The position numbers and the translations under genes are program-made. A DNA stretch of 34,392 nucleotides from Chiloscyllium plagiosum (taxonomy: Eukaryota). The stretch is from NCBI RefSeq assembly GCF_004010195.1, contig NC_057758.1, positions 9,729,481 to 9,763,872 on the forward strand, written 5' to 3'. The notes under the pieces are model-generated. The model was not told where the DNA came from. It did no database searches and saw only the letters and a program-made list of their open reading frames with translations. Positions 5,211-34,207 of the stretch are shown here, piece by piece; the stretch's first letter is position 1, and every line of letters starts with the position of its first letter.

Positions 5211-5212
5211 TG

Positions 5213-5815
5213 TAGCAGGCCTGTCATTTTGATAGAGCGGTGAGAAGAGAAGGTGAAGTGAAGCGAGGGCTGCCGGGAAGGGTAAGTTTTCCCACTTAAA
5301 AAGGGACTTAACTCAGGAGTCTTGCTTGCCTTCATTAGCCAGTGAATTGAGTATAGGAGTTGGGAGGTCATGTTGCAGCTGTGCAGTAATTTGGTTAGGC
5401 CATTTTTTTGGAATTCGGCATTCAATTCTGGTCTCCCTGCTATAGGAAAGATGTTATAAATGTTGAAAGGGTTCAGAAAAGAATTACAAAAACGTTTCCA
5501 GGTTTGGAAGATTTGAGGAAGAGGGAAAGGTTGAATAGGCTGGGGCTATTTTCCCTGGAGATTGGAGGCTGAGGGGTGATGTTATAGACGTTTACAAAAT
5601 CATGAGCGATATGGATAGAGTGAATACCCAAAGTCTTTTCCACAGGGTAGGGGGAGCCCAAAACTAGAGGGCATAGGTTTAAGGTGAGAAGGGAAAGATT
5701 GAAAAGGGACATCTATTTTGTTCACAAAGATGGTGGTGCATGTGTGGAATGAGCAGCCAGGCACGGTGGCGACGTCTGGTACTGATATAACATCTAAAAG
5801 GCATCTGGATGGTGA
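5213..5815 (+). mobile_element. CR1 3' fragment preceded by a CR1 5'UTR-like monomer (candidate bipartite element)
   Basis: 5320-5815 is a CR1 ORF2 C-terminus; 5213-5319 resembles the 5'UTR monomer at 24928-25050 (GCGAGGGCTGCCGGGAAGGGTAAGT...TTAAAAAGGGACTTAACTCAGG). Confidence 0.7.
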
Positions 5816-5951
5816 CAGTGACTGACTGTCCACCCAAACCCATTACCGGCGACTCCACATCATGAGTTGGATATTGATAGGGCTGCCATAATCCTGCCAG
5901 ATCAGGTGCCTAAACTAGAGATGACTGGTGATGATTTAACCTGAGGGTCAC

Positions 5952-6617
5952 GTCTTGCAGCGTCTACCATGACAGGGTTGTATGGTATTGTCCTGAAAGC
6001 TGGGCAGTTTGTTACGAACAATGATCTGTTTGAGGTTTGGTGGCTGTTTAAAGTAAGAAGTGGAGATGGGGGGGGGGGGGGGGGGTGGGGGGGGTGGAGG
6101 TTCAGGCCTTAGTGAGGTGCTCATCCTCATTGATAATGTGTTGCAGGCTCTGAATAACTTGTGCTTCGCAGAATTAAATTTTGCTTTTTGCTCAAAAACT
6201 GCATGAATCCATGTAAGATTCTGTAAATCCGTTTTTTAGATTACAATGAGTCTGACCATTGTGGCACAGACAGCCTCACAGGGAGCTAACACCTTCAATA
6301 CATTATCTGGGCCAATATGACATCAATTGTTATAATTCACTTGAGAACGTAACTTTTAAAAAACATTTTGCGATTTACATATGAAAGAACTGAAACCAAC
6401 ATGGTCATTCTAAAAGATGAGAGATTTAACAAACAATCCAGATCTTTTTCAATATATAATTTCAGTTACATCACACTGTAAACTTTTGCTATAAATTCTG
6501 TGTCATAGAATCTTATTCTCCACAATCACCTGATGAAACAGCAGTGTGATGAAGCTCCGAAAGCTAGTGCTTCCAAATAAACCTGTTGGACTATAAAGTG
6601 GTGTTGTGTGATTTTTA
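5952..6617. mobile_element. Penelope-like element fragment: inverted ORF piece (5952-6160, -) joined to a 3'UTR/pseudo-LTR (6165-6617, +)
   Basis: Minus peptide FKQPPNLKQIIVRNKLP...PCHGRRCKT is the PLE linker with Cys motif before GIY-YIG; the plus part ends in CTGATGA...GAAAGCTA followed by AATAAACCTGTTGGACTAT. Confidence 0.8.
6527..6569 (+). ncRNA. Decayed minimal type I hammerhead ribozyme motif in a PLE terminal repeat
   Basis: CAC-CTGATGA-(stem II disrupted, contains an extra TGATGAA)-GAAA-GC-TA-GTG; stem I CAC/GTG; palindromic AGCT stem III. Confidence 0.6.
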
Positions 6618-7159
6618 TCTGTGGAATTATGGCGACTTTACCTTAATTATACAATAATACAGTTGCTGTTTATGCCTGTCTGTAGAGCAGAATTTGGGAT
6701 TAAATAGTGAAACGTGTTTCAAAAAAGGAGTTTAGTATACAACAATGTATTGTTTAGATGATAAACTTTTATGTAAATTTTAAAAAGTCAATACAAATTG
6801 TGCATGTATCATTGTTGGAATTGTCTAAAATATGTTCGTATTGGAATGATGTTCCGAAAGACCTGAGAGGGATTTCAGTAAGTGTCTGACTTAAGTTTAA
6901 GTAGTAAGTTTGTGGAGAGCTCTACTGAGCAGGTTAAGAAATGTCCTTTGACGTAGATATCCTGTTAGTCTGGCCGCAAGGGGCTAATAATACAGAGGAG
7001 GGGTTGGGTGGAGCAATGCAGTAGACTCAGACACAGCATTATGTGTTCACAAGCCAGACTGAAGAAATGGAACTTGGCAGCACTTGAGTTTGGTCACTGA
7101 CCTCCTTGTTGGTTGTTTTACCCTCATCATGTCAGCAGTTTGATGGAAAGTAGATCCTA

Positions 7160-7172
7160 GTTACCAGGCAAC
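7160..7172. promoter_or_regulatory. RFX X-box motif
   Basis: GTTACC-A-GGCAAC fits GTNRCC(N0-3)RGYAAC and lies in apparently non-repetitive sequence; motif match only. Confidence 0.35.
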
Positions 7173-7486
7173 AAACCCTCTAACTCAATAACAGAGACCG
7201 TACCTTGGAGCAGCAGGTCCACAGGAATATTATTTTATCAGCAAATAATTTTATTTATATGCTGACTCAAAACAACTAATTGGTTACATTAACACACAAA
7301 TCCTGATACAGTTTCCAGTTGTAGAGGAATTCACTGTTTCTCTTTTTGGATTTACTCAATAATTCTTCTCATCACTGGAGTGTTTATGGATAAACATACC
7401 AGATTGTGGGGGTGGGAGTTGATTCTCATTCCAGAAAGCAGTCACAGTCTGTGTGTTTACTTACCACCTGGTACCTACCGCCGGCT

Positions 7487-7685
7487 CCTCTCCTCTCTCC
7501 GTCTTTCCCTGTGGTCTCCCTCTTGCCCATCCTTTCTTCCCTCCACTCCTCCCTCTCTGTCTCTCAGTCTATCACTCACTCACTCACAGACTCTAGACCT
7601 TGCTCTCTCTTTCTCTCCCACTTTCACTCATTCTCTCAATCTCTTCCATACACTCTAGCTCACTGGCACACTCAATCTGTCTGAA
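7487..7685 (+). repeat. CT/CA-rich low-complexity tract
   Basis: Pyrimidine-rich run with (CT)n and CACT units. Confidence 0.7.
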
Positions 7686-7789
7686 CATAGTGAACAGGCC
7701 CCATGACAAGTTGAATTGACTAAGTGAAGTCACCATGAGTTGGTGAAAGCACAATTGTGTTGAGGCAGACGTTTACATAAAGTCAGCGG

Positions 7790-8260
7790 AGTGTAAGGAA
7801 ATCATAGTGGCTAACTTTTTTTCTCGGATTGGAGAAAGCTATGTTGTGGGGCTATTCAGAAGCTGCTTTTCTTGATTGACATCAATGTTTTCGAGCAGTT
7901 TCAAACTTTGCAGTTGACAAAAAAAACTCTGAAGCATACTGAGCTGTGCAAAGGATATGGATCGACTTCAGTCAGACATAAACTGATGTAGTTAAATGGA
8001 TTTGGAGTAGCTGAGAGAAGTAGGCAGTGGTCCATCTTATTGGTGATGCAACATGAAATAAGGAGTATAATTCTAAATCAAGACGATTGGATAAATTGAT
8101 GAAGTTGATAAGTAGGATAAGAAGGTGGTTTTAAGTCAATAGGTATCCTATAAACAGAAAGGTGTTGTGTACAGAAGCTCAAAGCAAGACACTGGCCATC
8201 TCACAATTGTTTGATTCAGAGAGCACATCCGAGGGAGGATGTTAAAGATAGGAAAGGGCT
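7790..8260 (+). mobile_element. Very old CR1 RT remnant
   Basis: Faint motifs (TTTGCAGTTGACA for FADD; TTGTGTACAGAAGCT...AGAGCAC for LYKSLVRPHLEYC). Confidence 0.45.
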
Positions 8261-8361
8261 GATCATGAGGGATGTTACAATGTAAAATGCACCAGTTCTT
8301 GTTCTTTGCAGACAGAGGGAGCAATTGCAAACACTGCTCTGTTCAACTCAAGAGTAAAACA

Positions 8362-8468
8362 AAAACTGGAATCCAGGGTAGACAAGCAGGACACTGGAAG
8401 AACACAGCAAGCCAGGCAGGCAGCATTAGAAGGTGGAGAAGTCAATGATTCGGGTGTAACCCTTCTTC
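8362..8468 (-). mobile_element. Decayed PLE pseudo-LTR fragment with hammerhead remnant
   Basis: Resembles the termini at 15880-15960 and 18035-18112; the minus strand reads GAAGA-A-GGGT-TAC-ACCC-GAAT. Confidence 0.7.
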
Positions 8469-8472
8469 CTGC

Positions 8473-8608
8473 CATCAGACTTCAGGTGAGGGAAAAGGTT
8501 GAGAAGTAAAGTCTTTTATGGTAACCTCAAACCGGTGATGGCCATTGAACCCACGCTGTTGGCAGCACATTGCCCTGAAAACCAACCATCCAACTAACTG
8601 CTAAACCA
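8473..8608 (-). mobile_element. Old tRNA-derived SINE head
   Basis: Minus strand has an A-box-like GGTTTAGCAGTTAGTTGG and a B-box-like GGGTTCAATGGCC. Confidence 0.55.
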
Positions 8609-8854
8609 ATGCCTGAGACTGACATGCAGCCTGAAAAACAATAAAACGATTCTGAAAATCTCTTTTGGTGGAGCTTTTTTGACTCCTAATCAAACAGTTC
8701 TTCATTTCTATAAGAAGCCACTGTAGATAGTTCTGAATCAGAGATGTTACTCCACGCGTGTGGAGGAGTTGAGACTTGAGCCACGTCAACCAAAGCTCAG
8801 AGGTGGGGAGAGTATCACTGTGTGTTGACCTCAACTCTTAAATACAAATCTCTT

Positions 8855-11800
8855 TTTGTAGTCTCAGCTTACCTGCCCTCTCACCACAACCCTTACTTTT
8901 TTGAACAGGAAAGGAATTATTTAACTTAGCTTTAAAAACATTCAATGAGGAAGCCTCAACTACTTCAGTGGGCATGGAATTCGACCGATTCACAACCCTC
9001 TGGGTGAAGACGTTGCTTATTAATTCGGTCCTAAAGTACATTTGCTGTTTTCCGATCTGTGGAAAGTACTCCAGAGTCCAGAAAATTTTGGAAAATTACC
9101 AGAAATGCATTTGCTTCTTGTCCTGCCATCTCCTTTAGTACCCTGGAATACATGCAAGTGAAGCCAGGAGACTTGTCTACATTCAGCCCCATGAGCTCGC
9201 CCAAAACTACGTCTTTCATGATAATGATTGTTCCCAGATCATCACCTACCTTCGTCTCCTTGTCAATTACTGACGTGTTATTCGTGTCCTCCACTGTCAA
9301 GACTGACACAAAATACTTGCTTCGGGCATTGGGATCTCCATTTGCCGAGAGGTGCGAAGGAGGAGCAAAGGACTGCTGGGAAGATCTAAACCCGAAACCC
9401 TAAACCACAGGGCGTCTCTCCCACCCACCTCCTCTAACCTTACAAAGAGTCTGTAAACTCAATAAGTTTTCAGGTTTCTCTTTTTTTTTCTTCCTTTGTT
9501 TAGTCCTGTGTGGAGTTTCAACGTAGCAGGATATGGATGTTAGGGCAGTTGCATGTTCCTCCTGCAGAATGTGGCAGGTGAGAGACACTTCTGCTGACTC
9601 TGCAGATGTTTCTGCTGACTACATCTGTGGGAAGTGCACCCAACTCCAGCTCCTCGAAAACCGAGTTAGGGAATTGAAGCTGGTGCTGGATGGACTACAG
9701 ATCATCTGTGAGGCTGAGGGAGTAATTGAGAGGATGTACAGGAAGGTGGTGACTCCCCAGACACAGGTTAAGGACAGTTGGGGAGGAAAGGGAACCGATG
9801 GTCAGAGCAGGATCCCCTGTTGCTGTTCCCCTCAGCAATAAGTATAACCATTTTTGATACTGCTGGTGGGGACGACCTATCAGGGGAAAGCCATAGTTGT
9901 CAGGTCTCTGGCACTGAGCCTGGCACTGTTGCTCAGAAGGGAAATGGGGAAAATAGAAAAGCGCTTGTGGTTGGGGATTCAATAGTTAGATGAATTGACA
10001 GGAAATTTTGTGGTCAGGAACAGGACTCCCGGAAGGTATGTTGCCTCCCTGGTGCCAGGGTCCAGGATGTCACCGATCGAGTTCACAGCTACAGAAACGA
10101 AGGTTGTAGAGGAAACTTTGTCTACTGAGTGAGTCAGTATGGGGGGAGGTTAGGAACAGCAAGGGAACAGCCACCGCACTGGGGGTTTTCTACAGACCAC
10201 TATTAGCAGTAGAGAGATTGAAGAACTTATAGGCAGGCAGATTCTGGAAAAATGCAGATGTAGCAGGGTTATTGTTATGGGTGATTTCAACTTTCCCAAT
10301 ATCAAGTGGAACCTCCTTACTGCAGATGGTTTGGATGGAGCCGTTTTTGTCAGGTGCATTCAGGAGGGTTTCCTCACTCAGTATGTAGACAGACCGACAA
10401 GGGGAGAGGCCATTTTGGATTTGGTGCTCGGCAATGAGCCAGGACAGGTGTCAGATCTCATGGTGGGAGAGCACTTTGGTGACGGTGATCAGAGCTGCCT
10501 CACATTTACCATAGTCTTGGAGAGGGAAAGGAGCAGTTACCGAGGCAAGATATTTAATTGGGGGAAAGAAGTTATGACGCTATCAGACAGGAGTTGGGAA
10601 GTACAGACTGGGAGCAATTGTTCCACAGAAAGGGCACAGGAGAGATGTGGAGACTACTTAAGGAGCAGTTGTTGTGAGTGATGCACAAATTTGTTCCTCT
10701 GAGACAGGTAAGAAGGGGTAAGATTAAGGAGCCTTGGATGACGAGTGCAGAGGATCTTCTCATCAAAAGGAAGAAGGCAGCTTACATAAGGTGGAGGAAG
10801 CAAGGATCTAGCACAGCTTTAGAGGATTATAGGCTTACAAGAAAGGAGCTCAGAAATGAGCTGAGGAGAGCCAGGAGGGAGCACAAAAAAGGCTTGGCAA
10901 AAAGGATTAGGAAGAATCCAAAGGCATTTTACTCATACGTGAGGAATAAGAGAAAGATCAGGGAGAAAGTAGGGCCAATCAAGGATAGCAGAAGGAAATT
11001 GTGCATTGAGTCTGAACAGATAGGGGAGCCCTAAATGAGTTTTTTGCTTTGGTTTTCACCAAGGAAAGGGACCTTGTTGTGAATGAAAACTTCGAGGAGT
11101 TGGGATACAGTCTTGACCGGATCAAGATTGATGAAGATGATGTGCAAGAAATTTTGGAAAACATTCAGGTTGATAAGTCCCCAGGGCAGGACCAGATTTC
11201 TCCTCGGCTGCTCCAGGAAGCGAGAAAGGAGGTTGCTAAGCCGCTGGCGAGGATATTTGCCTCCTCACTCTCCACAGGAGTCGTACCGGAGGATTGGAGG
11301 GAGGTGAATGTTGTCCCTCTTTTCAAGAAAGGTAATCGGGAAATCCCTCGCAATTACAGACCAGTCAGTCTTATGTCTATGGCCAGCAAAGTTTTGGAAA
11401 GAATTTTGAGGGATAGGATGAATGACTATTTGGCAAAGTATAGTGTGACTAAAGTGGTCAGCATGGCTTTATGAGGGACAGGTCGTGCCTCACAAATCTT
11501 ATTGAGTTCTTTGAGGAAGTGACAAGACAGGTTGACGAAGGTTGAGCAGTGGATGTGGTGTATGTGGACTTCAACAAGGCATTTGATAAGATTCCCCATG
11601 ATAGGCTCATTTATAAAGTCAGGAAGTATAGGATACAGGGAGATTTGGCTATCTGGATTCAGAATTGGCTGGCTGACAGAAGGCAGAGAGTGGTTGTCGA
11701 TGGAAAGCATTCTGCCTGGAGGACAGTGTTGAGTGGGGCCCCGCAGGGCTCTGTTCTTGGGCCTCTGCTCTTTGTAGTTTTTATAAATAACTTGGATGAG

Positions 11801-13620
11801 ATGGTTGAGGGGTGGGTTAGTAAATTTGCAGATGACACAATGGTTGGAGGTGTCATCAATAGTCTCGAGGGCTACTGCAGGTTACAGCGCCACATAAATA
11901 GGATGCAGAACTTGGCTGAGAAATGGCAAAGGGAGTTCAGGCTGGATAAATGTGAAGTGATGCATTTTGGAAGGTCGAACTCGAATGCTGAATATAGGAT
12001 TAAAGACAGGATTCTTGGCAGTGTGGAGGAACAGAGGGATCTGGGTGTGCAAGTACATAGATCCCTCAAAGTTGCCACCCAAGTGGATAGAGTTGTTAAG
12101 AAAACCTATGGTGTTTTGGCTTTCATTAACAGGGGGATCGAGTTTAAGAGCCACGAGGTTTTGCTGCAGCTCTACAAGTCCCTGGTGAGACCACACTCGG
12201 AATATTGTGTTCAGTTCAGGTTGCCCTGCTATAGGAAAGATACAGTGGCTTTGGAGAGGGTGCAAAGAAGGTTTATCAGGATGCTGCCTGGGTTGAAGTC
12301 TTGCCTTATGAAGAAAGGTTGAATAAGCTCAGACTTTTCTCTCTGGAGAGAAGGAGGAAGAGAGGAGACCTGATCGAGTTATACAAGATAATGAGTGGAA
12401 TAGATAGAGTGAATAGCCAGAGACTTTTCCTCAGGGCAGGATTGACTGGTACAAGGAGTCATAGTTTGAAGATATTAGAAGGAAGTTATAAAGGAGACGT
12501 CAGAGGTAGGTAATTTATGCAGAGAGTTGTGAATGCATGGAATGAGTTGCCAGCGGTGGTGGTGGAAGCAGAGTCATTAGGGACATTTAAGCGACTGCTG
12601 GACATGCACATGGATAGCAGTGAGTTGAGGGGCGCGTAGGTTAAGTCACTACAGTTGACATTAGGATTAAACTTCAGCACAACATCATGAGCCAAAGGGC
12701 CTGTTCTGTGCTATACTTTTCTATGTTCTCTGTTCTATACCTGTTCATGTCTGGGCTCAGTCCTCATATCTCTTTACTAAATCTCCCTTCTCATCCTCTA
12801 AAAACTATTGTTTATCTTAGTCACTCTTTTTCATTTTATATATTTATAGAAACGTTTGCTATCTGGCTTTATATTCTGAGCTAGTTTACACTCATAATCT
12901 ATCTTACTTTTCTTTATAAGCTATTTTTGTGGCTTTCTGTTAACCTTTAAAATATTCACAATCTTCTAGTTTCCTGCTGGTCTTTGCTAGTTTGTCTGCC
13001 TTCTCCTACAATTTGATAAACTCCTATATTTCCTGACACATCCAGAGCAGATTACCCCCTTTCCTACAATCCTTTCTTTTAAGTAGTATATACTTTTGCT
13101 GAGCACTTTGGAAAATTGCTTTGAAAGTCCTCCACTGCCTATGAACTGTCCCACCACAAAGTATTTGCTTCCAGTCAACTTTAGACAAGTTCTTCCCCAT
13201 CCTACTGTAGTCTCCTTTCTGAAAGCACAGGACCCTGGTTTTGGATTATATCTTCTTGCTTCTCCATTTGTATTCTAAACGTCACCATATGGTGATTGCT
13301 CCTTCCAAGTGGAACGCTAACTATGAGATTATTAATTATTCCTGTCTCGGGACCAGATCTAGGATTGATTGCTCCCCCATTGCTTCCATGACATATTGTT
13401 CAAGAAAAGTATCGTGGAAACATTCAACGAACTCCTCCTCAAGACTACCCTGACCAACCTGGTTCGAACGATAGACGTTAAAATGAAAATCCCTCATGAT
13501 AATTGCTGTACCAATTTTACAGGCTTTAGTTATTTCTTTGCTTATTGCCCGCCCCACTGTGGTATTATTATTTGGTAACCTATAGACTATGCATATCAGT
13601 AACATTTTCTTCGTAGAATT
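8855..13620 (-). mobile_element. Older minus-strand CR1 (8855-9316 and 12737-13620), interrupted by a younger CR1
   Basis: Endonuclease motifs VYRLPN, IIMRDF and ILDLV at 13336-13605; SVLTVED..DKSPG..RVLKE at 9031-9309; FTQRVV 3' part at 8855-9030. The sequence resumes after 12737. Confidence 0.85.
9311..12737 (+). mobile_element. Near-full-length CR1 LINE (5'UTR, ORF1, ORF2, (TTCTATG)-type tail) with an internal deletion
   Basis: ORF1 from 9533 has a CxxC..CxxC zinc finger, leucine zipper and esterase motif VVGDSIVR. ORF2 has MGDFNFP, ILDLVL, NYRPVSL, PQGSVLGP, KFADDT. ORF1 jumps to mid-endonuclease at about 10088. Possible TSD ATAC(T/C)TG at 9313 and 12737. Confidence 0.95.
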
Positions 13621-14813: not shown

Positions 14814-15869
14814 TTAATTACAGAGTCATAGGTTCCAACAGCATGGAGACAGACCAAACAGACCCAAACCGGTTCACGCCGACCAAAATGTACGTTCATG
14901 CTAAACCCATTTCCCTGCGCTTGGCCAATATCCTTCTAATCCTTTCCGATCCATGTATTTGTCTAAATGCCTTTTAAGTATTGTTAATGGATCTGGCTCA
15001 GCCATTTCCACTGGCTGCTCATTCCATATATGTACCACCCTCTGTGTAAAACAGTTGTGTCTCAGATTCTCTTTTGTTCTTTCCCCGAACCTTAAATTGA
15101 TGTCCTCCAGTTCTTGATTCCTCGGCCTGGGAATAAGATTGGATGCATTCACTATATCCATGCTACTCATCATCTTATACACTTCCGTAAGGTCCCCCCT
15201 CAGTATCCTATGCTCTAAAGAAAAATAATTCTAGCTTGTCAAACCTGTCCCTTCAACTCAGACCATTGAGTCCAGGCAACATCTTTGTAATTTTTACCTG
15301 CACTCTTTCTAGTTTAATAATATCCCTCCTATAGCAAAGTGCGCAAAACTGAGCACAATGCTCCAAGTTCAGTCTGAACAACATTCTGTACAACTGCAAA
15401 ATAACTTTCCAACTTCTGCACTCACTGTCCTGTGTGATGAAGGCTAGTGTGTCACAAGCCTTCTTCACTGTCCTGTCTACCCGTGACTCCACTTTCAGAG
15501 AACCAAACATCTGAATTCCAACGTCCCTCTGTTCCACTACACTGCTAAAGGCCCTGCCATTCACCATTAAACTCCTACTTTGATTGGACTTTCCAAAATG
15601 CAAGACCTCACACTTATCTACATTAAATCTCATTTGCCATTTCCTGGCCCACTTCCCCAGCTGATCAAGGTTCTGCTGCAATTTCTGATAACCTTCTTGA
15701 CTTTCCCTATTGCCGTCTATTTTAGTGTCATCAGCAAATGTACAAATCATGCCTTGTCCTTTCTCATCTAAATCATTGATATTGATAACAACAGCAAAAG
15801 GCCCAGCACCAACCCCTGAGGTACTTCATTAGTCACAGCTTTCAGTCCAACAGGTATTCCTCCACTATT

Positions 15870-16437
15870 CTGGATCAATGGTGCTGGAAGAGCACAGCAA
15901 TTCAGGCAGCATCCGAGGAGCTTCGAAATCGACGTTTCGGGCAAAAGCCCTTCATCAGGAATAAAGGCAGAGAGCCTGAAGCGTGGAGAGATAAGCTAGA
16001 GGAGGGTGGGGGTGGGGATAGAGTAGCATAGAGTACAATAGGTCAGTGGGGGAGGAGATGAAGGTGATAGGTCAGGGAGGAGAGGGTGGAGTGGATAGGT
16101 GGAAAAGGAGCTGGGCAGGTCGGACAAGTCCGGACAAGTCAAGGGGGACAGTGTTGCTGGAGGTTAGAAACTAGGATGAGGTGGGGGAAGGGGAAATGAG
16201 GAAACTGTTGAAATCCACATTGATGCCCTGGGGTTGAAGTGTTCCGAGGCGGAAGATGAGGCGTTCTTCCTCCAGGCGTCTGGTGGTGAGGGAGCAGCGG
16301 TGAAGGAGGCCCAGCACCTCCATATCCTCGGCAGAGTGGGAGGGGGAGTTGAAATGTTGAGCCACGGGGCGGTTTGGTTGATTGGTGCGGGTGTCTCGGA
16401 GATGTTCCCTAAAGCGCTCTGCTAGGAGGCGCCCAGT
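15870..16437 (-). mobile_element. 5'-truncated Penelope-like element (GIY-YIG C-terminus and pseudo-LTR)
   Basis: AQHFNSPSHS..EEERLIFRLGTLQPQGIN; hammerhead in the terminus; flanking direct repeat TCCACTATT at 15861-15869 and 16449-16457. Confidence 0.9.
15927..15962 (-). ncRNA. Minimal type I hammerhead ribozyme motif
   Basis: Minus strand ATTC-CTGATGA-A-GGGC-TTTT-GCCC-GAAA-CG-TC-GATT: intact core, 4-bp stem II, ACGT palindrome. Confidence 0.8.
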
Positions 16438-16950
16438 ACCTTTATCCTTCCACTATTACCCTCTGCTTCCTACCATCAAGCCAATTGCGTATCCAATTTG
16501 CCAGCTCCCCAATGATTCCACGGAATCTAACATTCACGAGCAGCCTAACATGTGAAAACTTACAAAGGCCTTAATGCAATCCATTTCAATTATGTCTACC
16601 AACCTCCCCTCATCAACCTTCCTGGTCACTTCATCAAAGAGCTCGAACAAATTAGTAAGGCATGATGTCACATTCACAAAACCATGTTGCCTACTGCTCA
16701 TGAAACAGGGTCTTTCCAAACCAATGTATATCTTATCCCTCAGAACCTTGTCAAGTAACTTACCTACCACAAATGTTAGGCTTATTGGTTTATAGTTCCC
16801 AGGCTTCCCTTGCAGCTCTTCTTGAATAATGGCACAAGTTTAACAACAAGATGTAAAATAATATTTTTCTGTTAAGTTTTCCATTAAAGTTATCCCAAGT
16901 TCCTCCTTCATTTGTTGTATTTTATCTATATTGTTTGAATAACTTAGGTT

Positions 16951-17290
16951 GAGTGGGACAACACACATCCTAGGACAGGCGAATCAAAAACATGCAGGAG
17001 AATTCTTAGAGGCATGGAACCTTAACCAGAACTACATCAATAAACACATCGACTTAGATCCTATCTACCTTTCCTTGAAAAAGAGAACCAGAAATGACAT
17101 CACCCACCTTAAGAAACCAAGACCTATAAATAGGGAGGCGGGACATACCACCAGCACTTCACCAGAGACTCTCACTGATGATGTTACCTAATATGATTCT
17201 GAAACATCTGAAAACAAATCTTCAAGTTCAAAGAGCTAACTTACAGACTTATCATCAACCTGAGTTACACATCTTCTCAAAAATCACTAA
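16951..17290 (+). mobile_element. Second PLE family 3' fragment with a decayed hammerhead (17172-17211)
   Basis: ILGQANQKHAGEFLEAW...INKHIDLDPIY (GIY-YIG C-terminus); TCA-CTGATGA-...-GAAA-CA-TC-TGA. Confidence 0.8.
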
Positions 17291-17449
17291 TGTAGGTTTT
17301 GCTTAACATCGAGTAATTTGTCTAAATGAATCACAACTCAAACGCAGCATCTTACATTTTCTTGTAAAATAAGAAAACAATACTGCCTGGGCTATCTTCT
17401 AAATGTATTTTCAGAGGGTCTGGTATGGTCAAGTAAAACACAAGACTGC

Positions 17450-17760
17450 GCTAAGGGATCTTGTCAGGATGCATGTAGGGAGCTTGTTTCCTCTGGTGCA
17501 CCAATCTAGAATCTGGGTACTGTTTAAAGTTAACCGGTTTGAGACATAGGTTAGAATCATTTATATTTTCTTGCAATTCTTTAAAATGTAATAGAATCAA
17601 AGTCGTGTATATTTCTAAGGCAAAAGTAAACAGGCAAAGAGGTAAGGAGAGGAAGGCAGAAAGATGGAGTAACCAAGTTAGCCACTTATTGAATGAGCGA
17701 CAGAGCATTCTCGAGAGGCTAAGAGGCCTACAGCTCTCCTAATTTGTACGTTCTTGTGTA
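17450..17760 (+). mobile_element. Old CR1 3' end remnant
   Basis: TTGTTTCCTCTGG..TCTAGAA and terminal GGCCTACAGCTCTCCTAATTTGTACGTTCTTGTG. Confidence 0.55.
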
Positions 17761-17986
17761 TGCGTTCAGAGAAGATTGAATGAGCAGAAAAACCACAGGG
17801 AGCTTTGTGAATTAAAGATGACATTGGTATAATGGAGAAAGATGACTTTAGTTCTGAAGATCAGATGTAGCAAAAATGTTCAGTTAGAGATCAGAATTAG
17901 TGAAGTTAGAAATTTCTTGTGGGAGTGGTTTCTGCCCTCCTAAGAGTAATCACACAGTAGATGGGGTATTCAGAAAGAAATCTTCG

Positions 17987-18633
17987 AGGAGAAAGTGAGG
18001 TCTGCAGATGCTGGAGATCAAAGTTGAAACTTTATTGCTGGAACAGCACAGCAGGTCAGGCAGCATCCAGGGAACAGGAGATTCGACGTTTCGGGCACAG
18101 GCCCTTCTTCAGAGAGCACCTCTGGGCCACCCGGACGAACCAACCCAACCAACCTGTGGCACAGCATTTCAACTCCCCCTCCCACTCCACCGAGGATATG
18201 CAGGTCATTGGACTCATCCACCGCCAAACCACAACAACCCGACGGTCGGAGGAGGAGCGTCTTATCTTCCGACTGGGAACCCTCCAACCGCAGGGGATGA
18301 ACTTGGACTTCACCAGCTTCTTCATCCCCCCTCCCCCCACCTTGTCTCAGCCGGATCCCTCCAGCCCAGCACCGCCTTCCTGACCTGCAGTCTTCTTCTT
18401 GACCTCTCCGCCTCCATCCTACTCCGACCTATCACCCTCACCTTGACCTCTTTCCACCTATCACATTTCCAACGCCCCTCCTCCAAGTCCCTCCTCCCTA
18501 CCTTTTATCTTCTCCTGCTGAACACTCTCTGCTCATTCCTGAAGAAGGGCCTGTGCCCGAAACGTCGAATCTCCTGTTCCCTGGATGCTGCCTGACCTGC
18601 TGTGCTGTTCCAGCAATAAAGTTTCAACTTTGA
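17987..18633 (+). mobile_element. Young Penelope-like element with an inverted partial pseudo-LTR at its 5' end
   Basis: About 95-bp perfect inverted repeat (about 18018-18112 vs 18539-18633); FREHL..VAQHFNSPSHS..LIFRLGTLQPQGMN in between; about 30-nt extra tail only on the left arm. Confidence 0.95.
18535..18570 (+). ncRNA. Minimal type I hammerhead ribozyme motif (predicted cleavage after GUC at 18566)
   Basis: ATTC-CTGAAGA-A-GGGC-CTGT-GCCC-GAAA-CG-TC-GAAT: stem I ATTC/GAAT, stem II GGGC/GCCC, palindromic ACGT stem III. Confidence 0.85.
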
Positions 18634-19504
18634 TATCCAAATGAATCCAACAAGAACTGGACCAAGCATATGTGGTACTCATAATCTTCTTCATCCTAAG
18701 TATACGCATGATTTTACTACAACTGCTAAGTATTTCATCAGTAATATTTTCAGCAACATAACACAAAACATCGCAGATAAGAAAAACTGCAGCATATTAA
18801 CATGCCAAATTTCCCCTAAAGTAAATGCATTAAAATTCCATCAAATTTGACAATATTGTTATGTATTTGGCTTTAAGGGGTTAACACGTAGGGGGTTCCA
18901 TACAACAGCCAAGCAGGGTGAGATCAATAGTTGTGATGTTGAGAAGATATGCTCTTCTTCATTAGGGTAAATAAAACCACAGAAAGTAGACAAAATCAAA
19001 CACAAAATATTGCTGAGGAAAGGAGTGAACAAAGACAGAAATGGGAACTATTTAAATGTAAATCTATGATTCGCTCCAGTAATAATATCTAACAATATTC
19101 AATATCTAGGATCATACCAAAAGAGTACTTTGAAGTATTAAAGGGATTTTCTGCTATCTAGTGATCTCTGAGGCATGAAGTTTCCCTTTCTTGATATGTG
19201 CAAGATCAAGACAAACACTAGGCATACAGTAACAGTGATATCACCGCAGGGAGTTGGCAGCCAATTACACTGAAGTATTCTCAAACAGCAAATCAGAAAG
19301 TAAAATGCAGTAAAATCTTCTACTCAATTAAAATTTCCACAGAGTAAATACAAATCATCAGTGATACACATGGGATTAAAGTAGCTGAAATATCATAACT
19401 TTTTTTTAAATTTGAAAAAAACATTATTGCCATAATAATGGCAAAAAAGCATCCCAGTGATATAACATTAGATTTCTATGAGTAACTATTGAGTTATTAA
19501 AATT

Positions 19505-20040
19505 AAATTGCATTTATATAGTAACTGTTATGGCCACAGAAAGATCCAAAATGCTTTACAGCCAATAAAGTACTTTGGAAGTACAGTCAGTGTTGACACA
19601 TAGCAGGCAATTTACATGTAGCAAGCTCCCACAAAAAGAAATGCTGTACTAATTATTGAAAAAATATTGACTATGACACCTGGAACAACTTTCTCATCAG
19701 TGGTGAGGTTCTGGAACCCACGAGTTCAAAGGGTAATACAGGCAAAAACCATAATCACATTAAAACATGCGGTGGAACAGTCAATGGGTTTAGGAATCAA
19801 AATTTGGAGAGTGGGATTAGTGTGACGAGGTATTCATCGACTGGTATGGACATAATGTGCCAGACGACTACCTTCTGTGCATGAAATCTTACTGTGTTTT
19901 CTATGTATCTATAACTCTTATTAAAAATAGTGCCATTGGCTCTTCTATGTCTACATTAGAGGACAGACAGGCCTTCACTTAGTAGGCTCTCGTCAAAAAG
20001 ATAGCAGCTTAAATCTTCCAACTTCCCTCACTGGATTGGA
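19505..20040 (-). mobile_element. Ancient Deu-domain SINE (SacSINE1/AmnSINE1-like), interrupted by an old CR1 3' piece at about 19695-19915
   Basis: TTGCATTTATATAG, AATGCTTTACAGCCAATAAAGTACTTTGGAAGT, GCAAGCTCCCACAAA and AAATAGTGCCATTGGCTCTT match my recollection of the DeuSINE consensus. Confidence 0.7.
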
Positions 20041-20387
20041 ATGTGTTGCTGGAAAAGCGCAGCAGGTCAGGCAGCATCCAGGGAACAGGAGAATCGACGT
20101 TTCGGGCATAAACCCTTCTTCAGGAATGAGGAAAGTTTGTCCAGCAGGCTAAGATAAAAGGTAGGGAGGAGGGACTTGGGGGAGGGGCGTCGGAAATGTG
20201 ATAGGTGGAAAGAGGTCAAGGTGAGGGTGATAGGCCAGACTGGGGTGGGGGCGGAGAGGTCGGGAAGAAGATTGCAGGTTAGGAAGGCGGTGCTGAGTTC
20301 GATGGATTTGACTGAGACAAGGTGGGAGGAGGGGAAATGAAATTTTCAGCTCTGATCTCCAGCATCTGCAGACCTCACTTTCTCCTA
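20040..20387 (-). mobile_element. Short PLE copy (pseudo-LTR only) with the terminal tail inverted at the opposite end
   Basis: 20040-20340 is the reverse complement of the 18330-18615 type sequence; 20342-20387 (ATTTTCAGCTCTGATCTCCAGCATCTGCAGACCTCACTTTCTCCT) is the missing tail in the opposite orientation. Confidence 0.9.
20092..20127 (-). ncRNA. Minimal type I hammerhead ribozyme motif
   Basis: Minus strand ATTC-CTGAAGA-A-GGGT-TTAT-GCCC-GAAA-CG-TC-GATT. Confidence 0.75.
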
Positions 20388-20474
20388 GCCATAGTGAAGC
20401 CACACAGTGTCTAACTCAATGACTCGTCTCTGGTAAATACGAACGTTGTTGATCTCCTCTTGTGTTGAAATCAG

Positions 20475-20606
20475 AAACAGACATGAAGGTGACAATTGGA
20501 AGCCACCCACCCTGCACTGAGACTGAAGCCAGCCGTCTCTGGTTTGATGTTTTCAAGAAAGACCTTTATATCTGCGATGGGAAGATTTGGGTGTCAATCT
20601 TACAAG
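20475..20606 (+). CDS. TSPEAR: Internal coding exon of thrombospondin-type laminin G domain and EAR repeat-containing protein (linker between TSP-N/LamG and EAR repeats)
   Basis: Acceptor ..TCTCCTCTTGTGTTGAAATCAG| and donor AAG|GTAATG; 132 nt, phase 1-1. Translates (E)TDMKVTIGSHPPCTETEASRLWFDVFKKDLYICDGKIWVSILQ, which aligns without gaps to human [50 protein letters not shown] (human sequence recalled from memory). Confidence 0.93.
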
Positions 20607-20739
20607 GTAATGCAACAATATCATTAAGGTAGAGATGGATTGTTTGTAGTGCCACCCCTCAGTGAAGTTGTTAATGAATAAATAGAATACATAAAGAAAG
20701 AAAGTCACATTTGTATGAACCTCAGCAAGGCTCATTACG

Positions 20740-21320
20740 GTCAATGAAATTTTTTTTACTCAGCCAATGAAACAGGGCACAATAAGCTCCCACAAACAGC
20801 AATATGATAGTTGCCAAGTGACCTGCTTTTGCAATGTTGATTGGTCAGGACTCCAGGGTTAACTCCCTTACTATTCTTTAAAATTGTGCTATGGTATCTT
20901 CTCCCTCCACTTGAGAGGATAGAATCATAGAATCCCTACAGTGTGGAAACAGGCCCTTCAGCTCAACAAATCCACACCAATCTTCTGAAGATCCATTCCC
21001 CTATCCTATTATCCTATACTTACCCGTGACTAATGCACCTAACCTGAACATTATGACAATTTAGCATGACCAGTTCACGTACCCTGCATGTCTTTGGATT
21101 GTGGGAGGAAACCTGAGCACCCAGAGGAAACCCACACAGACATGGGGAGAATGTACTGTCGCCCAACGGTAGAATCAAATGCAATACCCTGGTGCTGTGA
21201 GACAGCAGTGCTAACCACTGAGCTACCATGCCAGATAGATGCGACCTTTTTTCTTAACAATTCGCCTCTGACTGCACACCCCTGCTCAGGACTACACTGG
21301 GGTATCAACCCAGATTAGAA
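20740..21320 (-). mobile_element. Second Deu-domain SINE, split by an HE1 SINE
   Basis: CAGCCAATGAA, AAGCTCCCACAAACAGCAAT and AAATTGTGCTATGGTATCTT parallel the 19505-20040 copy; it resumes after 21233. Confidence 0.65.
20920..21232 (-). mobile_element. HE1 V-SINE (older copy)
   Basis: tRNA-like head (GGTAGCTCAGTGGTTAGCACTGCTG), V-domain, CR1-type tail; possible TSD GATAG at 20918 and 21234. Confidence 0.9.
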
Positions 21321-21482
21321 CTTTCTAAAGAGGCATTTTGCCCACAATATTGTAAATCAGCGTTCAGGGTTCAAGTAGTGAGTCACGCTAATTCAGAGTG
21401 CATCAGTGCTGAACGGTACTGTCTTCCATGTGCGTCAATGATCAGATAAAGGTCTCTGAGTGTTGAATAAATTATCCCCTCC

Positions 21483-21551
21483 CCACACAACACATACACA
21501 CACACCCACTCTCTTTCTGTTTCACACACACACGTATACACACACACACAC
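21483..21551 (+). repeat. Imperfect (CA)n microsatellite running into the gap
   Basis: CACACA runs visible directly in the sequence. Confidence 0.9.
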
Positions 21552-22345
21552 NNNNNNNNNNNNNNNNNNNNNNNNNNNNNNNNNNNNNNNNNNNNNNNNN
21601 NNNNNNNNNNNNNNNNNNNNNNNNNNNNNNNNNNNNNNNNNNNNNNNNNNNNNNNNNNNNNNNNNNNNNNNNNNNNNNNNNNNNNNNNNNNNNNNNNNNN
21701 NNNNNNNNNNNNNNNNNNNNNNNNNNNNNNNNNNNNNNNNNNNNNNNNNNNNNNNNNNNNNNNNNNNNNNNNNNNNNNNNNNNNNNNNNNNNNNNNNNNN
21801 NNNNNNNNNNNNNNNNNNNNNNNNNNNNNNNNNNNNNNNNNNNNNNNNNNNNNNNNNNNNNNNNNNNNNNNNNNNNNNNNNNNNNNNNNNNNNNNNNNNN
21901 NNNNNNNNNNNNNNNNNNNNNNNNNNNNNNNNNNNNNNNNNNNNNNNNNNNNNNNNNNNNNNNNNNNNNNNNNNNNNNNNNNNNNNNNNNNNNNNNNNNN
22001 NNNNNNNNNNNNNNNNNNNNNNNNNNNNNNNNNNNNNNNNNNNNNNNNNNNNNNNNNNNNNNNNNNNNNNNNNNNNNNNNNNNNNNNNNNNNNNNNNNNN
22101 NNNNNNNNNNNNNNNNNNNNNNNNNNNNNNNNNNNNNNNNNNNNNNNNNNNNNNNNNNNNNNNNNNNNNNNNNNNNNNNNNNNNNNNNNNNNNNNNNNNN
22201 NNNNNNNNNNNNNNNNNNNNNNNNNNNNNNNNNNNNNNNNNNNNNNNNNNNNNNNNNNNNNNNNNNNNNNNNNNNNNNNNNNNNNNNNNNNNNNNNNNNN
22301 NNNNNNNNNNNNNNNNNNNNNNNNNNNNNNNNNNNNNNNNNNNNN
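21552..22345. other. Assembly gap (794 N)
   Basis: Run of N. Confidence 1.
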
Positions 22346-22559
22346 AGGGGTAGGTTCTTCACTCAGTGAGTCGTAAGTTCATGGAATGCCCTGCCAGTAG
22401 CAGTGGTGGACTCTCCCTCTTTATGGGCATTTAAGCGGGCATTGGATAGGTATATGGAGGATAGTGGGTTAGTATAGGTTAGGTGGGCTTGGATCGGCGC
22501 AACATCGAGGGCCAAAGGGCCTGTACTGCGCTGTATTCTTCTATGTTCTATGTTCTATG
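22346..22559 (+). mobile_element. Young CR1 3' end with (TTCTATG)n tail
   Basis: CpG-retaining 3'UTR ending TTCTATGTTCTATGTTCTATG; closely similar to 34208-34392 (-). Confidence 0.9.
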
Positions 22560-22609
22560 ACTGTTTTTGAGAATGTTTCTCACAGCGGCGTGTTTTGCAG
22601 CCAGTTGGC

Positions 22610-23190
22610 TGGCTATTCTAAATTTGGTAATGTGAAATGAGACTGGAATGACCCGATAGTGAAGGTGCCCCTAGGTAGCAATGACTAGAATGTAATTGAC
22701 TTTCATATTTAGTTTGAGGGAGAAATTAGTGAAGCAAAGGCGTCAATTTTAATTTTAAATAAGATTATAACTGCAGAGCTAAGGTTAACTGCGAAATTAG
22801 GTGATGGGTAAAGGTACAGAGAAAAGGCTCCAAGGGAAGAACACACTTTCCATGACTCATAAAGGTATTTCTAGATGGTATCGCAGGATTATTTCAGAAG
22901 AAGGCCATTCAGTCTTTTATTTCTGTAATAAGCATTTTGACTTGCAGTCAATTGTTTGCCTTTTCCCTGTATCCTGAACATTGTTTCTGTTTAAACGATC
23001 ACCTTACCAAATTGAACCTGCTTCTAACACATCTGCAGGCAGTGCATTCCAGACCCAGCAACTTGCTACGTGAAAATGGTCTTTTTTAAAATTCTTCCAT
23101 CTTACACTTAACTCTTTGTAAAAGCTGTTCAAAACTGTTTCCTGATTCTTTTATGAGTAGGAATGACTTCTCCTAATGTAAATCTGTCCA
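22610..23190. mobile_element. Decayed CR1 remnants (endonuclease piece +, 3' piece -)
   Basis: VKVPLGSND-like motif at about 22660-22690; GAAGGCCATTC and GCAGTGCATTCCAG on the opposite strand. Confidence 0.5.
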
Positions 23191-23304
23191 GAAAGAGAAT
23201 AATCAGAGATTGGAAATAATGAAGATAAGAATTTGCTTGTGGGGTGGTCTCTTCCCTCTGAACCATAATCACACTCTAAATGGGGTGTTCATGAAGAAAT
23301 AATG

Positions 23305-24233
23305 GAGATCTGCTTGATGTGCTGTATGTGGATTTCAGCAAGGCATTCGATAAGGTTCCCCACAGTAGGCTATTGTACAAAATGCGGAGGAATGGGATTG
23401 TGGGAGATATAGCAGTTTGGATCAGTAATTGGCTTCCTGAAAGAAGACCGAGGGTAGTGGTTGATGGGAAATGTTCATCCTGGAGTCCAGTTCCCAGTGG
23501 TGTACTGCAAGGGTCGGTGTTGGGTCCACTGCTGTTCCTCATTTTTATAAACGGCCTGGATGAGGGCGTAGAAGGGTGGGTTAGTAAATTTGCAGATAAC
23601 ACTAAGGTCAGTGGAGTTGTGGATAGTGACAAAGGATGTTGTAGGTTACAGAGAGACATAGATAAGCTGCAGAGCTGGGCNNNNNNNNNNNNNNNNNNNN
23701 NNNNNNNNNNNNNNNNNNNNNNNNNNNNNNNNNNNNNNNNNNNNNNNNNNNNNNNNNNNNNNNNNNNNNNNNNNNNNNNNNNNNNNNNNNNNNNNNNNNN
23801 NNNNNNNNNNNNNNNNNNNNNNNNNNNNNNNNNNNNNNNNNNNNNNNNNNNNNNNNNNNNNNNNNNNNNNNNNNNNNNNNNNNNNNNNNNNNNNNNNNNN
23901 NNNNAAGATAATCAGAGGGTTAGATAGGGTGGACAGGGAGAGCCTTTTTCCAAGTATGGGGACGGTGAGCACGAGGGGGCATAGCTTTAAATTGAGGGGT
24001 GATAGATATAGGACAGGTGTCAGAGGTAGTTTCTTTACTCAGAGAGTAGTAAGGGTATGGAATGCTTTGCCTGCAACGGTAGTATGTTCACCAACTTTAA
24101 GTACATTGGACAAGCATATGGACGTACATGGAATAGTGTAGGTTAGATGGAGTTCAGGTTGGTATGACAGATCGGTGCAACATCGAGAGCTGAAGGGCCT
24201 CTACTGCACTGTAATGTTCTATGTTTTATGTCT
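23305..24233 (+). mobile_element. 5'-truncated CR1 spanning a gap
   Basis: [27 protein letters not shown] before the gap; FFTQRVV and a TTCTATG-type tail after it. Confidence 0.92.
23681..23904. other. Assembly gap (224 N)
   Basis: Run of N. Confidence 1.
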
Positions 24234-24925
24234 ATGGGAAAGATGTAGGGAATATCTTATAATCATTCTGTCCTTCTATACCTCAATTGCACGTCTGTCA
24301 GAATTGCTCACGATGTTCTCTTCAATCTACTTGCATGTTTAAAGATTTTACAATCAATGAGGCTCGACTACTGTTGCTGAAATTGCAAGCCCAAGGGAAA
24401 TAAGGGCCTACCGGCGTCCTGGGCACCTGACCTCTTTGTGGAAACCCAGAACTGTGGACTGACCTGCTTGTGAACAAGACCTGACCCCAGAGTAAGCTGA
24501 CATTCACGAGGTTCGACCTAATCAACCACATGATCCCCCCTGCACCTCCAAGAAACGCTCAAGGCCTCGACTAGTGCCCAGGACCCCATTGGGAGAGCAC
24601 AGACACCTCTCGGAACAGCAGACTTCCTTCACCAATACCAAGGATATAAGCAGTCAGCTACCCAGGAAATGTGGGAGACACTTTGAACTTCAGTGCGAAT
24701 GAAACTTCAGAGTTTCCAACATACCCCTGACAAATTTCCAAGCCATTGAGAACAAAATTGATTAACTTGAAGCTACACTCATCTTTGAAAGTGAACTGAG
24801 AGACTGCTGTGTGTTCTGTTTTACAGAGGCATGGCTCACCCTTGCTAAACAGGACTGCCTTATGTTACGACTTGGTAAACCCCACCCTGCTAATCTAAAC
24901 CAGCCACACAGCATTAAAAGTTCTT

Positions 24926-29784: not shown

Positions 29785-30450
29785 AATCGTACCATTAGCC
29801 CAGTACTCTGCATTCATATGAAGATTCATCCAAAGTGAATCATCTCACACTTTTATGCATTAAACTCCATTTGTCATCTCTCAACCCAGCTCTGCAGTTT
29901 ATCTATGTCTCTCTGTAACCTATAATATCATTTGTCAGTATCCACAACTCTAACAACCTTAGTGTCACCTGCAAATTTACTAACCCATCCTTCTATGCCC
30001 TCATCCAGTTCATTTATAAAAATGACAAACAACTCTGGACCCAAAACAGATTCTTGCAGTACGCCACTAGTAACTGAACTCCAGAATTAATATTTCCCAT
30101 CAACTACCAGCCTCTGTCTTCTTCCAGCTAACCAATTGCTGATCCAAACCGCTAAATCACCCTGAATCCCATGCTTCTGTATTTTGTGCAATAGCCTACA
30201 CTGGGGAACCATTTCAAACATCTTTCTGAAATCCACATACACCACATCAACCGCTTTACCCTCATCCACCTGTTTGGTCACCTCCTCAAAGAACTCAAGT
30301 CACAACCTACCCTTCACAAAAATCATGTTGACAATCCCTAATCAACGTATTCCTTTCTAGATCCTATCTCCTATAAACTTTTCCAACACTTTACCTACAA
30401 CTGAAGTAAGGTTCACAGATCTATAATTTCCAGGGTTGTCTCTACTCCCA
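29785..30450 (-). mobile_element. CR1 RT fragment
   Basis: VDEGKAVDVVYVDF..WISNWLAGRRQRLVVDGKY; KFAGDTK. Confidence 0.88.
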
Positions 30451-31565: not shown

Positions 31566-31779
31566 ATGATGTGAAAGTCCCGTGCTGGATTGAGGTGGAC
31601 AAAGTCAGAAGTCACATGACACCAAGTTCTCATCCAAACACTTTATTTGAAATCACTAGCATTTGAAGCCTTACTCCTTCTTCAGCTGGAGTGTTCACCT
31701 GACAAAGAAGCAACACTCTGAAAACTTAAGATTTCAAATAAACTTGTTGGGCTAAAACCTGGTATTGTGCAACTTCTGA
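31566..31779. mobile_element. ORF-less fold-back element made of two inverted PLE termini
   Basis: Arms 31605-31688 and 31697-31779 are imperfect inverted repeats, both similar to 6527-6617; each has a decayed hammerhead; tail 31566-31604 on the left arm only. Confidence 0.75.
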
Positions 31780-32695: not shown

Positions 32696-33003
32696 ATTAG
32701 ATTACATTACAGTGTGGAAACAGGCCCTTCGGCCCAACAAGTCCACACCGACCCGCCGAAGCGAAACCCACCCATACCCCTACATTTACCCCTTACCTAA
32801 CACTACGGGCAATTTAGCATGGCCAATTCACCTGACCCTGCACATCTTTGGACTGTGGGAGGAAACCGGAGCACCCGGAGGAAACCCACGCAGACACGGG
32901 GAGAACGTGCAAACTCCACACAGTCAGTCGCCTGAGGCGGGAATTGAACCCGGGTCTCAGGCGCTGTGAGGCAGCAGTGCTAACCACTGTGCCACCGTGC
33001 TGC
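32696..33003 (-). mobile_element. HE1 V-SINE (young, intact A and B boxes)
   Basis: GGTGGCACAGTGGTTAGC...GGGTTCAATTCCCG; CpG-rich; TSD GACAG at 32691-32695 and 33005-33009. Confidence 0.95.
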
Positions 33004-33139
33004 AGACAGCAGATTGATGAAGATGAGTTCATGTATGTGTTTCCCTCTTGTTAGTTCCCTCAACATCTGCTGCAGATTCAGTCTAGCACCCATGTCCTTT
33101 CAGACCAAACCAACTGAATCTGTTGTGCTGCTGGAAAAA

Positions 33140-33855
33140 ACCTTGGGGAAAATGAATCTACAGAGAGATCTGGGTGTTCAGATCCATTGTACCCTGAAAG
33201 GGGAAACGCTAGTCGATAGAGTGATCAAGAAGATATACAACATACTTTCCTGCATCGGACAGGGTAGAGAGTAAAACATGTGGCAAGTCATGTTACAGTT
33301 GGAAAGGACTTTGGTTCAGCCACATTTGGAATATTGCGTACTTTTCTGTTCACCAATTACCAAAAGGATGTGGATGCTTTGGAGAGGGTGCAGAGGAGGT
33401 TCACACATAGGTTGCCTGATATGGAGAGTGCTAGCTATGAACAGAAGTTGAGTAGATTAGGAGTATTTTCAGTAGAAAGACGGAGATTGAGGGTCTACAA
33501 AATCACAAGAATTTTATGCAGGGTGGATAGCAAGGAGCCTTTTCCCAGAGTGGGTGATACAATTACTATGGGGTCACAGTTTCAAGATGAGAAGGGAAAA
33601 GTTTAAAGGAGATACACGTGTAAAGTTCTTTATGCAGAGGGTGGTGGGTGCCTGGAACACGATGCCAGCAGAGGTGGTAGACGTGGGCACTATAGAGTCA
33701 TTTAAGATGTATCTAGACAGATAAATGAATGGGCAGGGAGCAGAGGGATACAGACCCTGGGAAAATAGGTGACAGGTTTAGATAGAGGATCAGAAATAGA
33801 GCAGGTTAGGACAGCTGAATGGCCTCTTCCTTTGCTGCAATTTTCTTTGTTCTTT
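33140..33855 (+). mobile_element. CR1 3' fragment
   Basis: QRDLGVQIH..; DVDALERVQRRFT..LSRLGVFSVERRRLR; 3'UTR GAATGGCCTCTTC. Confidence 0.88.
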
Positions 33856-33859
33856 TTTC

Positions 33860-34110: not shown

Positions 34111-34207
34111 TTTGTGTAATTTTATTCTATGAAGCAGCATTTAGGATTAACAGTAAATCTAAGAAATACTCAAATAATTTTTAAAGGTCTTTGGACTTCT
34201 GGGGTGG

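Follow-up and report, generated by a model that had tools for sequence, protein, structure and literature searches.

Whether a hammerhead ribozyme lodged in an intron may cleave the transcript of its host gene is the question raised by a stretch of 34,392 nucleotides (nt) from the shark Chiloscyllium plagiosum (contig NC_057758.1, positions 9,729,481 to 9,763,872), hereafter termed the window, in which coordinates are counted unless another contig is given. An earlier note on its sequence had described a cluster of minimal hammerhead motifs with covarying stem II, had traced them to the terminal repeats of Penelope-like elements (PLEs) and had supposed that the copy at 18535 lies in the pre-mRNA of TSPEAR, upstream of an exon, and might cleave the intron. 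TSPEAR is the name that we presume the exon and its gene to bear; no search result gives it. The reading that we regard as very probable is a different one: the motifs are minimal hammerheads of PLE terminal repeats residing in likely inert, 5'-truncated insertions, while the exon together with one of the motifs was placed here by the assembler during gap filling and is foreign to the locus.

Composition and origin of the exon-bearing stretch

The exon is part of 2.9 kb (18634-21551) composed of a segment termed X, a piece of the element PLE-B and intron-exon DNA of contig C7, which adjoin an insertion of the family PLE-A (Table 1). The native locus of X is situated on contig C10 (L074, 63.556-63.562 Mb), where X is bounded by PLE-A and PLE-B insertions, each with a target-site duplication (TSD), and at the C7 donor PLE-B likewise has its own TSD. 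The genome contains 302 instances of the PLE-A/X junction and 100 of the X/PLE-B junction. The locus set comprised 108 loci, namely 88 of the 100 X/PLE-B junction sites (including the window and L074; the other 12 are on unplaced contigs) and 20 of about 200 shorter copies, plus 10 loci with the exon part only. At all 108 loci the left end is anchored at the PLE end and the right ends stop at scattered points, while a TSD of at least 10 nt, mostly of 13-18 nt, is present at 55. As in gene capture, host DNA with an identifiable donor lies between pseudo-long terminal repeats (pLTRs) with a TSD, but the single-copy depth in two samples and a length that tracks missing PLE speak against copies of real DNA.

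Logan depth for window positions 17300-21100 was obtained from two other samples of the organism (runs X2 and X5). Segment X and the exon reach 9-31 (41-85 in three bins with small repeats) as against 16-30 in the single-copy flank and 1e5-1e6 in PLE bins. In X2, a single unbranched contig of 3,203 nt joins X to the DNA natively upstream of it and carries the donor's allele at 19154; the haplotype of the copies in the exon region is an allele seen in the same sample. Moreover, the 225,257 core bases hold 23 differences, 21 of which are alignment run-over in L057, one is the donor's allele and one lies 4 nt from a copy end, which leaves about one private difference in 225 kb once run-over and donor allele are removed. 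Rare single-nucleotide polymorphisms (SNPs) number 33 in about 20 kb of flank-anchored arms versus one in inner arms.

Where the right side of an insertion proves to be the 5' terminus of that minus-strand PLE itself, the filled length follows the length of PLE that is missing (r 0.85 at 14 loci; rho 0.94 at 19 loci and 0.99 at the 10 loci with a TSD of at least 12 nt; median error 223 nt, permutation p 0.007). At 22 of the 108 loci the sequence stops at the identical base of a (CA)n run, many before N. Overlaps of 0, 1, 2 and 3 nt at the joins were counted 20, 9, 5 and 1 times, compared with about 20, 10, 4 and 1 by chance, and three unfilled PLE-A gaps are lined with an identical stretch of 738 nt (100% and 99.9% alike). 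A cargo that is identical throughout, single-copy in two samples and sized to the missing PLE points to an error of gap filling.

The course of events would have started from an old CR1-like fossil into which a PLE-A element, real and polymorphic, had inserted (17982 to about 18633); the halves of the fossil form the flanks at 17795-17981 and 22562-22820 and are 88 nt apart in the homolog L046. Past the 3' end of PLE-A the assembly would have left the locus by following the sole real PLE-A/X junction, the one on C10, through X, crossed via common PLE-B sequence into the TSPEAR intron on C7 and presumably halted at the (CA)n run; along this same path the interior of 100-302 PLE-A insertions would have been filled until roughly the gap size was reached. 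A TSD partner of the window's own PLE-A insertion was looked for and not found, and was presumably lost in the fill or the gap. Iterative gap closers can choose wrongly among similar repeats (PMC3626529), and short-read assemblies are known to be broken by structures of the PLE kind (PMC8557442, Craig et al. 2021). The literature searched held no published account of this artefact.

Several points weigh against this explanation. The depth values derive from X2 and X5 and not from the best-matching sample S1 (runs X1, X3 and X4), which is probably the assembled individual; depth in Logan does not amount to a formal copy number, and its contigs can demonstrate that a sequence is present but not that it is absent. 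Six loci with a right-side hairpin were set aside from the length comparison, all of them longer than expected, and their inclusion lowers r to 0.06 (n 20); among the 14 loci retained, L128 is an outlier (1107 vs 2008), and for 5 of the 19 loci the position was assigned by rank, assuming an offset. The join overlaps were compared with chance alone. TSDs, a fixed left end and rightward decay are also expected of a real 5'-truncated passenger, and whether the motifs cleave or are inert is judged from modelling.

A second set of exon copies (L027, L032 and L118-L125) starts from the PLE-B tail without X and has private SNPs only in the first ~100 nt; these copies probably represent the same artefact, entered from PLE-B insertions. 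The hammerhead cut site had been considered as the 5' end of the copies and was rejected, given that no ends pile up there and that, in the 10 copies with the exon only, private SNPs extend beyond it. Likewise, the window was rejected as master of a chimeric family, because a TSD with X is lacking there and X is native to L074. Gap edges at L148-L150, L152 and L037 display the common 738 nt, four tandem copies of a 120-nt piece of open reading frame (ORF) and about 14 copies of a 36-nt unit, which are probable further loops of gap filling, and three long-ORF matches of the genome search, seemingly 1,000-1,700 amino acids (aa) in length, turned out to be N gaps.

The reading that comes next, though improbable, takes the copies as real: a chimeric passenger RNA of antisense TSPEAR exon, X and antisense PLE-A arm would have been copied about 300 times by the reverse transcriptase (RT) of PLE-A in a recent burst confined to the lineage of the assembled individual, synthesis of each copy starting from an autonomous RNA of its own and moving to the passenger via antisense pairing. 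The claim that a Neptune-type PLE amplified such a three-locus chimera to about 300 identical, TSD-flanked copies in one shark lineage, which would be vertebrate exon shuffling caught in the act, is equally improbable. Capture of host exons by PLEs is known from a rotifer (PMC3846280, PMC6431247), including the trans-mobilisation of intron-containing DNA (PMC3846280), and 13-18-nt TSDs, a fixed 3' end with random 5' ends, two identified donors with TSDs of their own and flank-side arms that differ between copies, as template switching predicts, all suit a burst. It is opposed by the single-copy depth in both other samples, the near-absence of private mutations and a cargo length equal to the missing PLE middle, which template switching does not predict, as well as by the putative master L074, which is devoid of the exon part and most of the PLE-A arm; weak additional evidence is that the 2% of run X21 examined contained no RNA read matching X or the exon. 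Real capture by template switching was in fact the initial reading, and was dropped on the read depth and the match of fill lengths.

Hammerhead motifs and the elements that carry them

The four intact cores are known minimal type I hammerheads of PLE terminal repeats. This origin, suggested in the earlier note, is supported by the position of motifs 3' of C-terminal GIY-YIG ORF remnants, which are 77-80% identical to an ORF of the genome with RT and GIY-YIG. Such a remnant precedes the motifs whose cores begin at 18539 and 15958, and the remnant of the latter's family, PLE-C, matches residues 651-731 of the ORF in L153 at 80% (tblastn), while the 20123 motif is found in an 88% related 3' end without remnant. 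RT and C-terminal GIY-YIG are united in a single ORF, seen as 749- and 893-aa frames with a YIDD motif in L153 and L152, and in the sister copy L062 the Pfam GIY-YIG domain scores above cut-off. Judged by eye, a cysteine (Cys) motif between RT and endonuclease suggests affiliation with the Neptune rather than the Poseidon clade, according to a criterion given in PMC8557442. PLE-A is a young family of many 99% identical copies ending at a common tail, and the hallmarks of endonuclease-containing (EN+) PLEs, i.e. pLTR with hammerhead, inverted 5' piece, a tail at one end and a TSD, are all present in the family. Positions 5243-6690 of L037 comprise the 5' pLTR and ORF start of a probably full-length PLE-A, with an open frame that runs through the tail region.

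The insertions follow a strict pattern. Among 54 TSD-verified loci with a right-hand piece (from the range L025-L145), the tail is present on the left only in 37 and on the right only in 15, on both or neither side in none, and two could not be classified; exactly one tailed end is hence seen in all 52 classifiable loci (Fisher p 2e-13). This rule should be real, because the insertion ends are anchored in unique flanks. A single tail-tail case stands outside the TSD-verified set, within which TSDs are mostly 14-15 nt long. Likely, each insertion is made by two reverse transcriptions, one per side of a staggered cut that yields the 13-18-nt TSD; one would start at the tail end and the other 35 nt inside the tail, so that every copy would end with one or two hammerheads. 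The count of 52 out of 52 is independent of the fill and fits a scheme in which the two start sites that an anole PLE showed in vitro are used in pairs. In X2 and X5, at least one allele each runs past 17981 without insertion; PLE-A is therefore recently active and polymorphic. The PLE-A insertion at L074 (12-nt TSD) is absent from the contigs of X2 and X5, and in the assembly about 520 nt are missing from its interior.

With regard to anatomy, the core pattern CUGANGA-A-stem II (4 bp)-GAAA-CG-UC is intact at all four sites that had been claimed, the earlier note having counted them from the outer ends of helix I, and its cleavage position after 18566 agrees with the cut predicted here. All four motifs possess the core boxes CUGANGA, GAAA and NUH of the type I minimal hammerhead ribozyme (min-HHR) and the palindrome ACGU at 15.2-16.2 in place of a helix III; an unpaired nucleotide between 9 and 10.1, the pair G10.1-C11.1 and a helix II of at least 4 bp were found as well. 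The 18539 core is the sole one with a clean 4-bp helix I, as the 15958 and 20123 copies have a U.U mismatch at pair 3 and the 18112 copy begins exactly at C3 without a helix I partner. A folding model assigns stem II of the 18539 motif a pairing of 0.9 in a 74-nt context. The ACGU duplex between two molecules is modelled at -3.1 kcal/mol and a dimer joined by it at -19.5 kcal/mol in cofold, versus 2 x -7.7. In the cycle of the element itself, the hammerhead would, judging from the literature, cut only as a pair via the ACGU palindrome or with the element's protein, and on modelling grounds the motifs in 5'-truncated insertions are likely inert. A descriptor with a stem II of at least 4 bp matched the window four times as against a mean of 0.11 (max 2) in 200 dinucleotide shuffles, and an Rfam scan of the window gave no hammerhead model match to the four cores and two unrelated chance matches to small nucleolar RNAs (snoRNAs). 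Decayed relatives had been named at 6527, about 8440, 17172 and about 31655/31697; they exist, at 6530, 8444-8470, 17175 and 31656-31685, though the core or stem II is broken in each. The window holds hammerheads of four or more PLE families, one of them represented by the 3' end of a different PLE at 16930-17260, the endonuclease-like remnant of which ends in DLDPIY and is accompanied by its own decayed hammerhead.

The notion of a special cluster is not confirmed. The 28-nt motif pattern has 88,717 exact matches in the 3.56 Gb of the genome, about one per 40 kb, from which 0.86 per window are expected by hand arithmetic. Moreover, a single insertion contributes both the 18112 copy, in its inverted arm, and the 18539 copy, in its direct arm (the arms are 99% complementary over 101 bp), and the 20123 copy stands in a probably mis-filled stretch, so that two independent events remain, for which P(>=2) is about 0.2. 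Covariation of stem II is not confirmed either: for the one pair examined, which is the pair named in the note, motifs with a 4-nt loop genome-wide show C-G 86,254 times, U.G 1,565 times, the broken C.A 861 times and the compensated U-A 37 times, the latter against 15.6 expected from independent changes. The pair seems hardly to covary, with a small compensated excess on a background of neutral decay. The variants observed in the window are a one-sided wobble (GGGU/GCCC of the 20123 copy) and a pairing that belongs to a core-broken copy (GGGU/ACCC at 8440), and other families exhibit the same fold in different letters.

Table 1. Features of the window (core, hammerhead core; strand given as + or -, a dot where none applies)
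Feature	Position	Strand	Remarks
Decayed hammerhead, other family (AGCU palindrome)	6530..6570	+	stem II disrupted
Decayed hammerhead	8444..8470	-	GGGU/ACCC stem; both core boxes broken
5'-truncated PLE 3' end (older family, PLE-C)	15866..16437	-	GIY-YIG remnant, polypyrimidine 3' region, pLTR with hammerhead
Minimal hammerhead	15927..15962, core 15935-15958	-	stem II GGGC/GCCC, palindrome ACGU, predicted cut 3' of 15931
Decayed hammerhead, further PLE family	17175..17208	+	after endonuclease-like ORF remnant 16943-17188
Left flank, single-copy piece of old CR1-like fossil	17795..17981	+	colinear with 22562-22820
Short inverted arm of young PLE-A insertion, with 35-nt tail	17982..18112	-	core 18089-18112
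Hammerhead core	18089-18112	-	in short inverted arm of PLE-A insertion
5'-truncated PLE-A 3' end	18108..18633	+	99% to at least 40 other copies; endonuclease C-terminus and pLTR
Complete minimal hammerhead	18535..18570, core 18539-18562	+	helix I AUUC/GAAU 4 bp, predicted cut after 18566
Segment X, 1.4 kb	18634..20039	.	native at C10:63.56 Mb (L074); probably wrongly filled in
PLE-B fragment and short inverted tail piece	20040..20386	-	bridges X to TSPEAR intron; probably not native here
Hammerhead core	20100-20123	-	GGGU/GCCC wobble, common to locus L074; within PLE-B fragment
C7 intron-exon-intron copy, TSPEAR-like exon ~20475-20606	20387..21551	+	ends in (CA)n run; probably wrongly filled in
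Assembly gap, 794 N	21552..22345	.	directly after (CA)n run
Right flank: young CR1-like 3' end, then old fossil from 22562	22346..22820	+	continues the fossil of the left flank
Decayed hammerhead	31656..31685	-	GAAA box lost

Supposed cleavage of a host intron or excision of a retrozyme

The window is not the TSPEAR gene, which by sequence resides on C7. The exon frame (20453-20629) has 96 identical full-length matches among 106, and the only exon copy then followed by EPTP exons is that at C7:22329480, whereas the window (C49) yielded no EPTP match. In the ESM Atlas the next C7 exon retrieved EPTP clusters, while the 59-aa exon frame gave no useful match. Apart from PLEs, the window harbours many pieces of CR1-like long interspersed elements (LINEs) and repeats resembling short interspersed elements (SINEs) on both strands (3365-5760, 10154-12750, 23269-24240, 29829-30298 and 32984-34392).

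The supposed cleavage of the TSPEAR intron by the 18535 copy is accordingly not borne out by the position of the EPTP exons, and cutting of the pre-mRNA of any gene spanning the site is very unlikely. The motif is complete, with its 4-bp helix I and the high stem II pairing in the 74-nt context; in a model of the plus-strand transcript, however, the 101-bp inverted arm upstream pairs with the whole of its core, leaving stem II a pairing probability of 0.0, and no same-sense partner for a dimer is nearby. No host exon was recognised by Pfam above cut-off in 142 of the 327 stop-free frames of at least 45 aa, in which only retroelement domains came near or over it; at least one allele in X2 and in X5 is without the insertion, and no pile-up of RNA ends is listed. 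In published work, cleavage was not seen with single minimal motifs (PMC4209133) and required a protein in the case of the anole motif (PMC11167929).

Most remote of all is a non-LTR retrozyme that would cut out and circularise the stretch flanked by two hammerheads of equal sense (20123 and either 18112 or 15958), for which three minus-strand motifs about 2 kb apart and the modelled pairing of dimers via ACGU might be adduced, but which is at odds with the involvement of three different PLE families, the missing helix I of the 18112 copy, the probable absence of the 20123 copy from this locus, the finding of no tandem array in the window and copy ends that show no accumulation at the cut site (of 108, the nearest are 20084 and 20090).

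Comparison with known elements

The ribozyme motif is one already known and very common in the genome, and the copies in the window are ordinary. What the locus conveys is rather a warning: PLE insertions in the assembly appear to be filled with foreign single-copy DNA along paths of common repeats, and such fills yield convincing fake exon captures with real TSDs, so that captures need to be checked by read depth. No publication on PLE hammerheads of sharks was found in a search that reached few subscription journals, and the motif tables of PMC4209133 may include sharks.

For the min-HHRs of PLE pLTRs, weak cleavage was observed with dimers and none with a single motif (PMC4209133), and the motif of the anole PLE cut only with the element's protein and was dispensable for insertion in vitro (PMC11167929). 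The motifs described here share with those of PMC4209133 the core boxes, the extra nucleotide between 9 and 10.1, G10.1-C11.1, the palindromic 15.2-16.2 without helix III, a short helix I where one is present, the occurrence as mostly single motifs in truncated copies and opposite-strand pairs 100-700 bp apart; on the contrary, helix II is only 4 bp long here, and the copy number is at least 88,717 exact matches compared with 4,000-9,000 for coelacanth and Xenopus. The carriers resemble EN+ PLEs of the Neptune type (PMC8557442; mechanism in PMC11167929) in having one ORF with RT followed by C-terminal GIY-YIG, 5' truncation, an inverted 5' piece, a 30-40-nt tail at one end only and two 3' end positions 35 nt apart, but differ by the strictness of the one-tail rule (52/52) and by TSDs of 13-18 nt. 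Non-LTR retrozymes (bioRxiv 10.64898/2026.07.22.740005; PMC7229834) likewise have type I hammerheads related to PLE pLTRs; tandem units with complete hammerheads are not seen here, however, where the motifs are the ends of truncated coding elements. Finally, the PLE trans-mobilisation in Adineta vaga (Arkhipova et al. 2013, PMC3846280) also features intron-containing host DNA framed by pLTRs and a TSD, in contrast to which the cargo here is identical at about 100-300 sites, is no repeat in two other samples and matches the absent PLE body in size.

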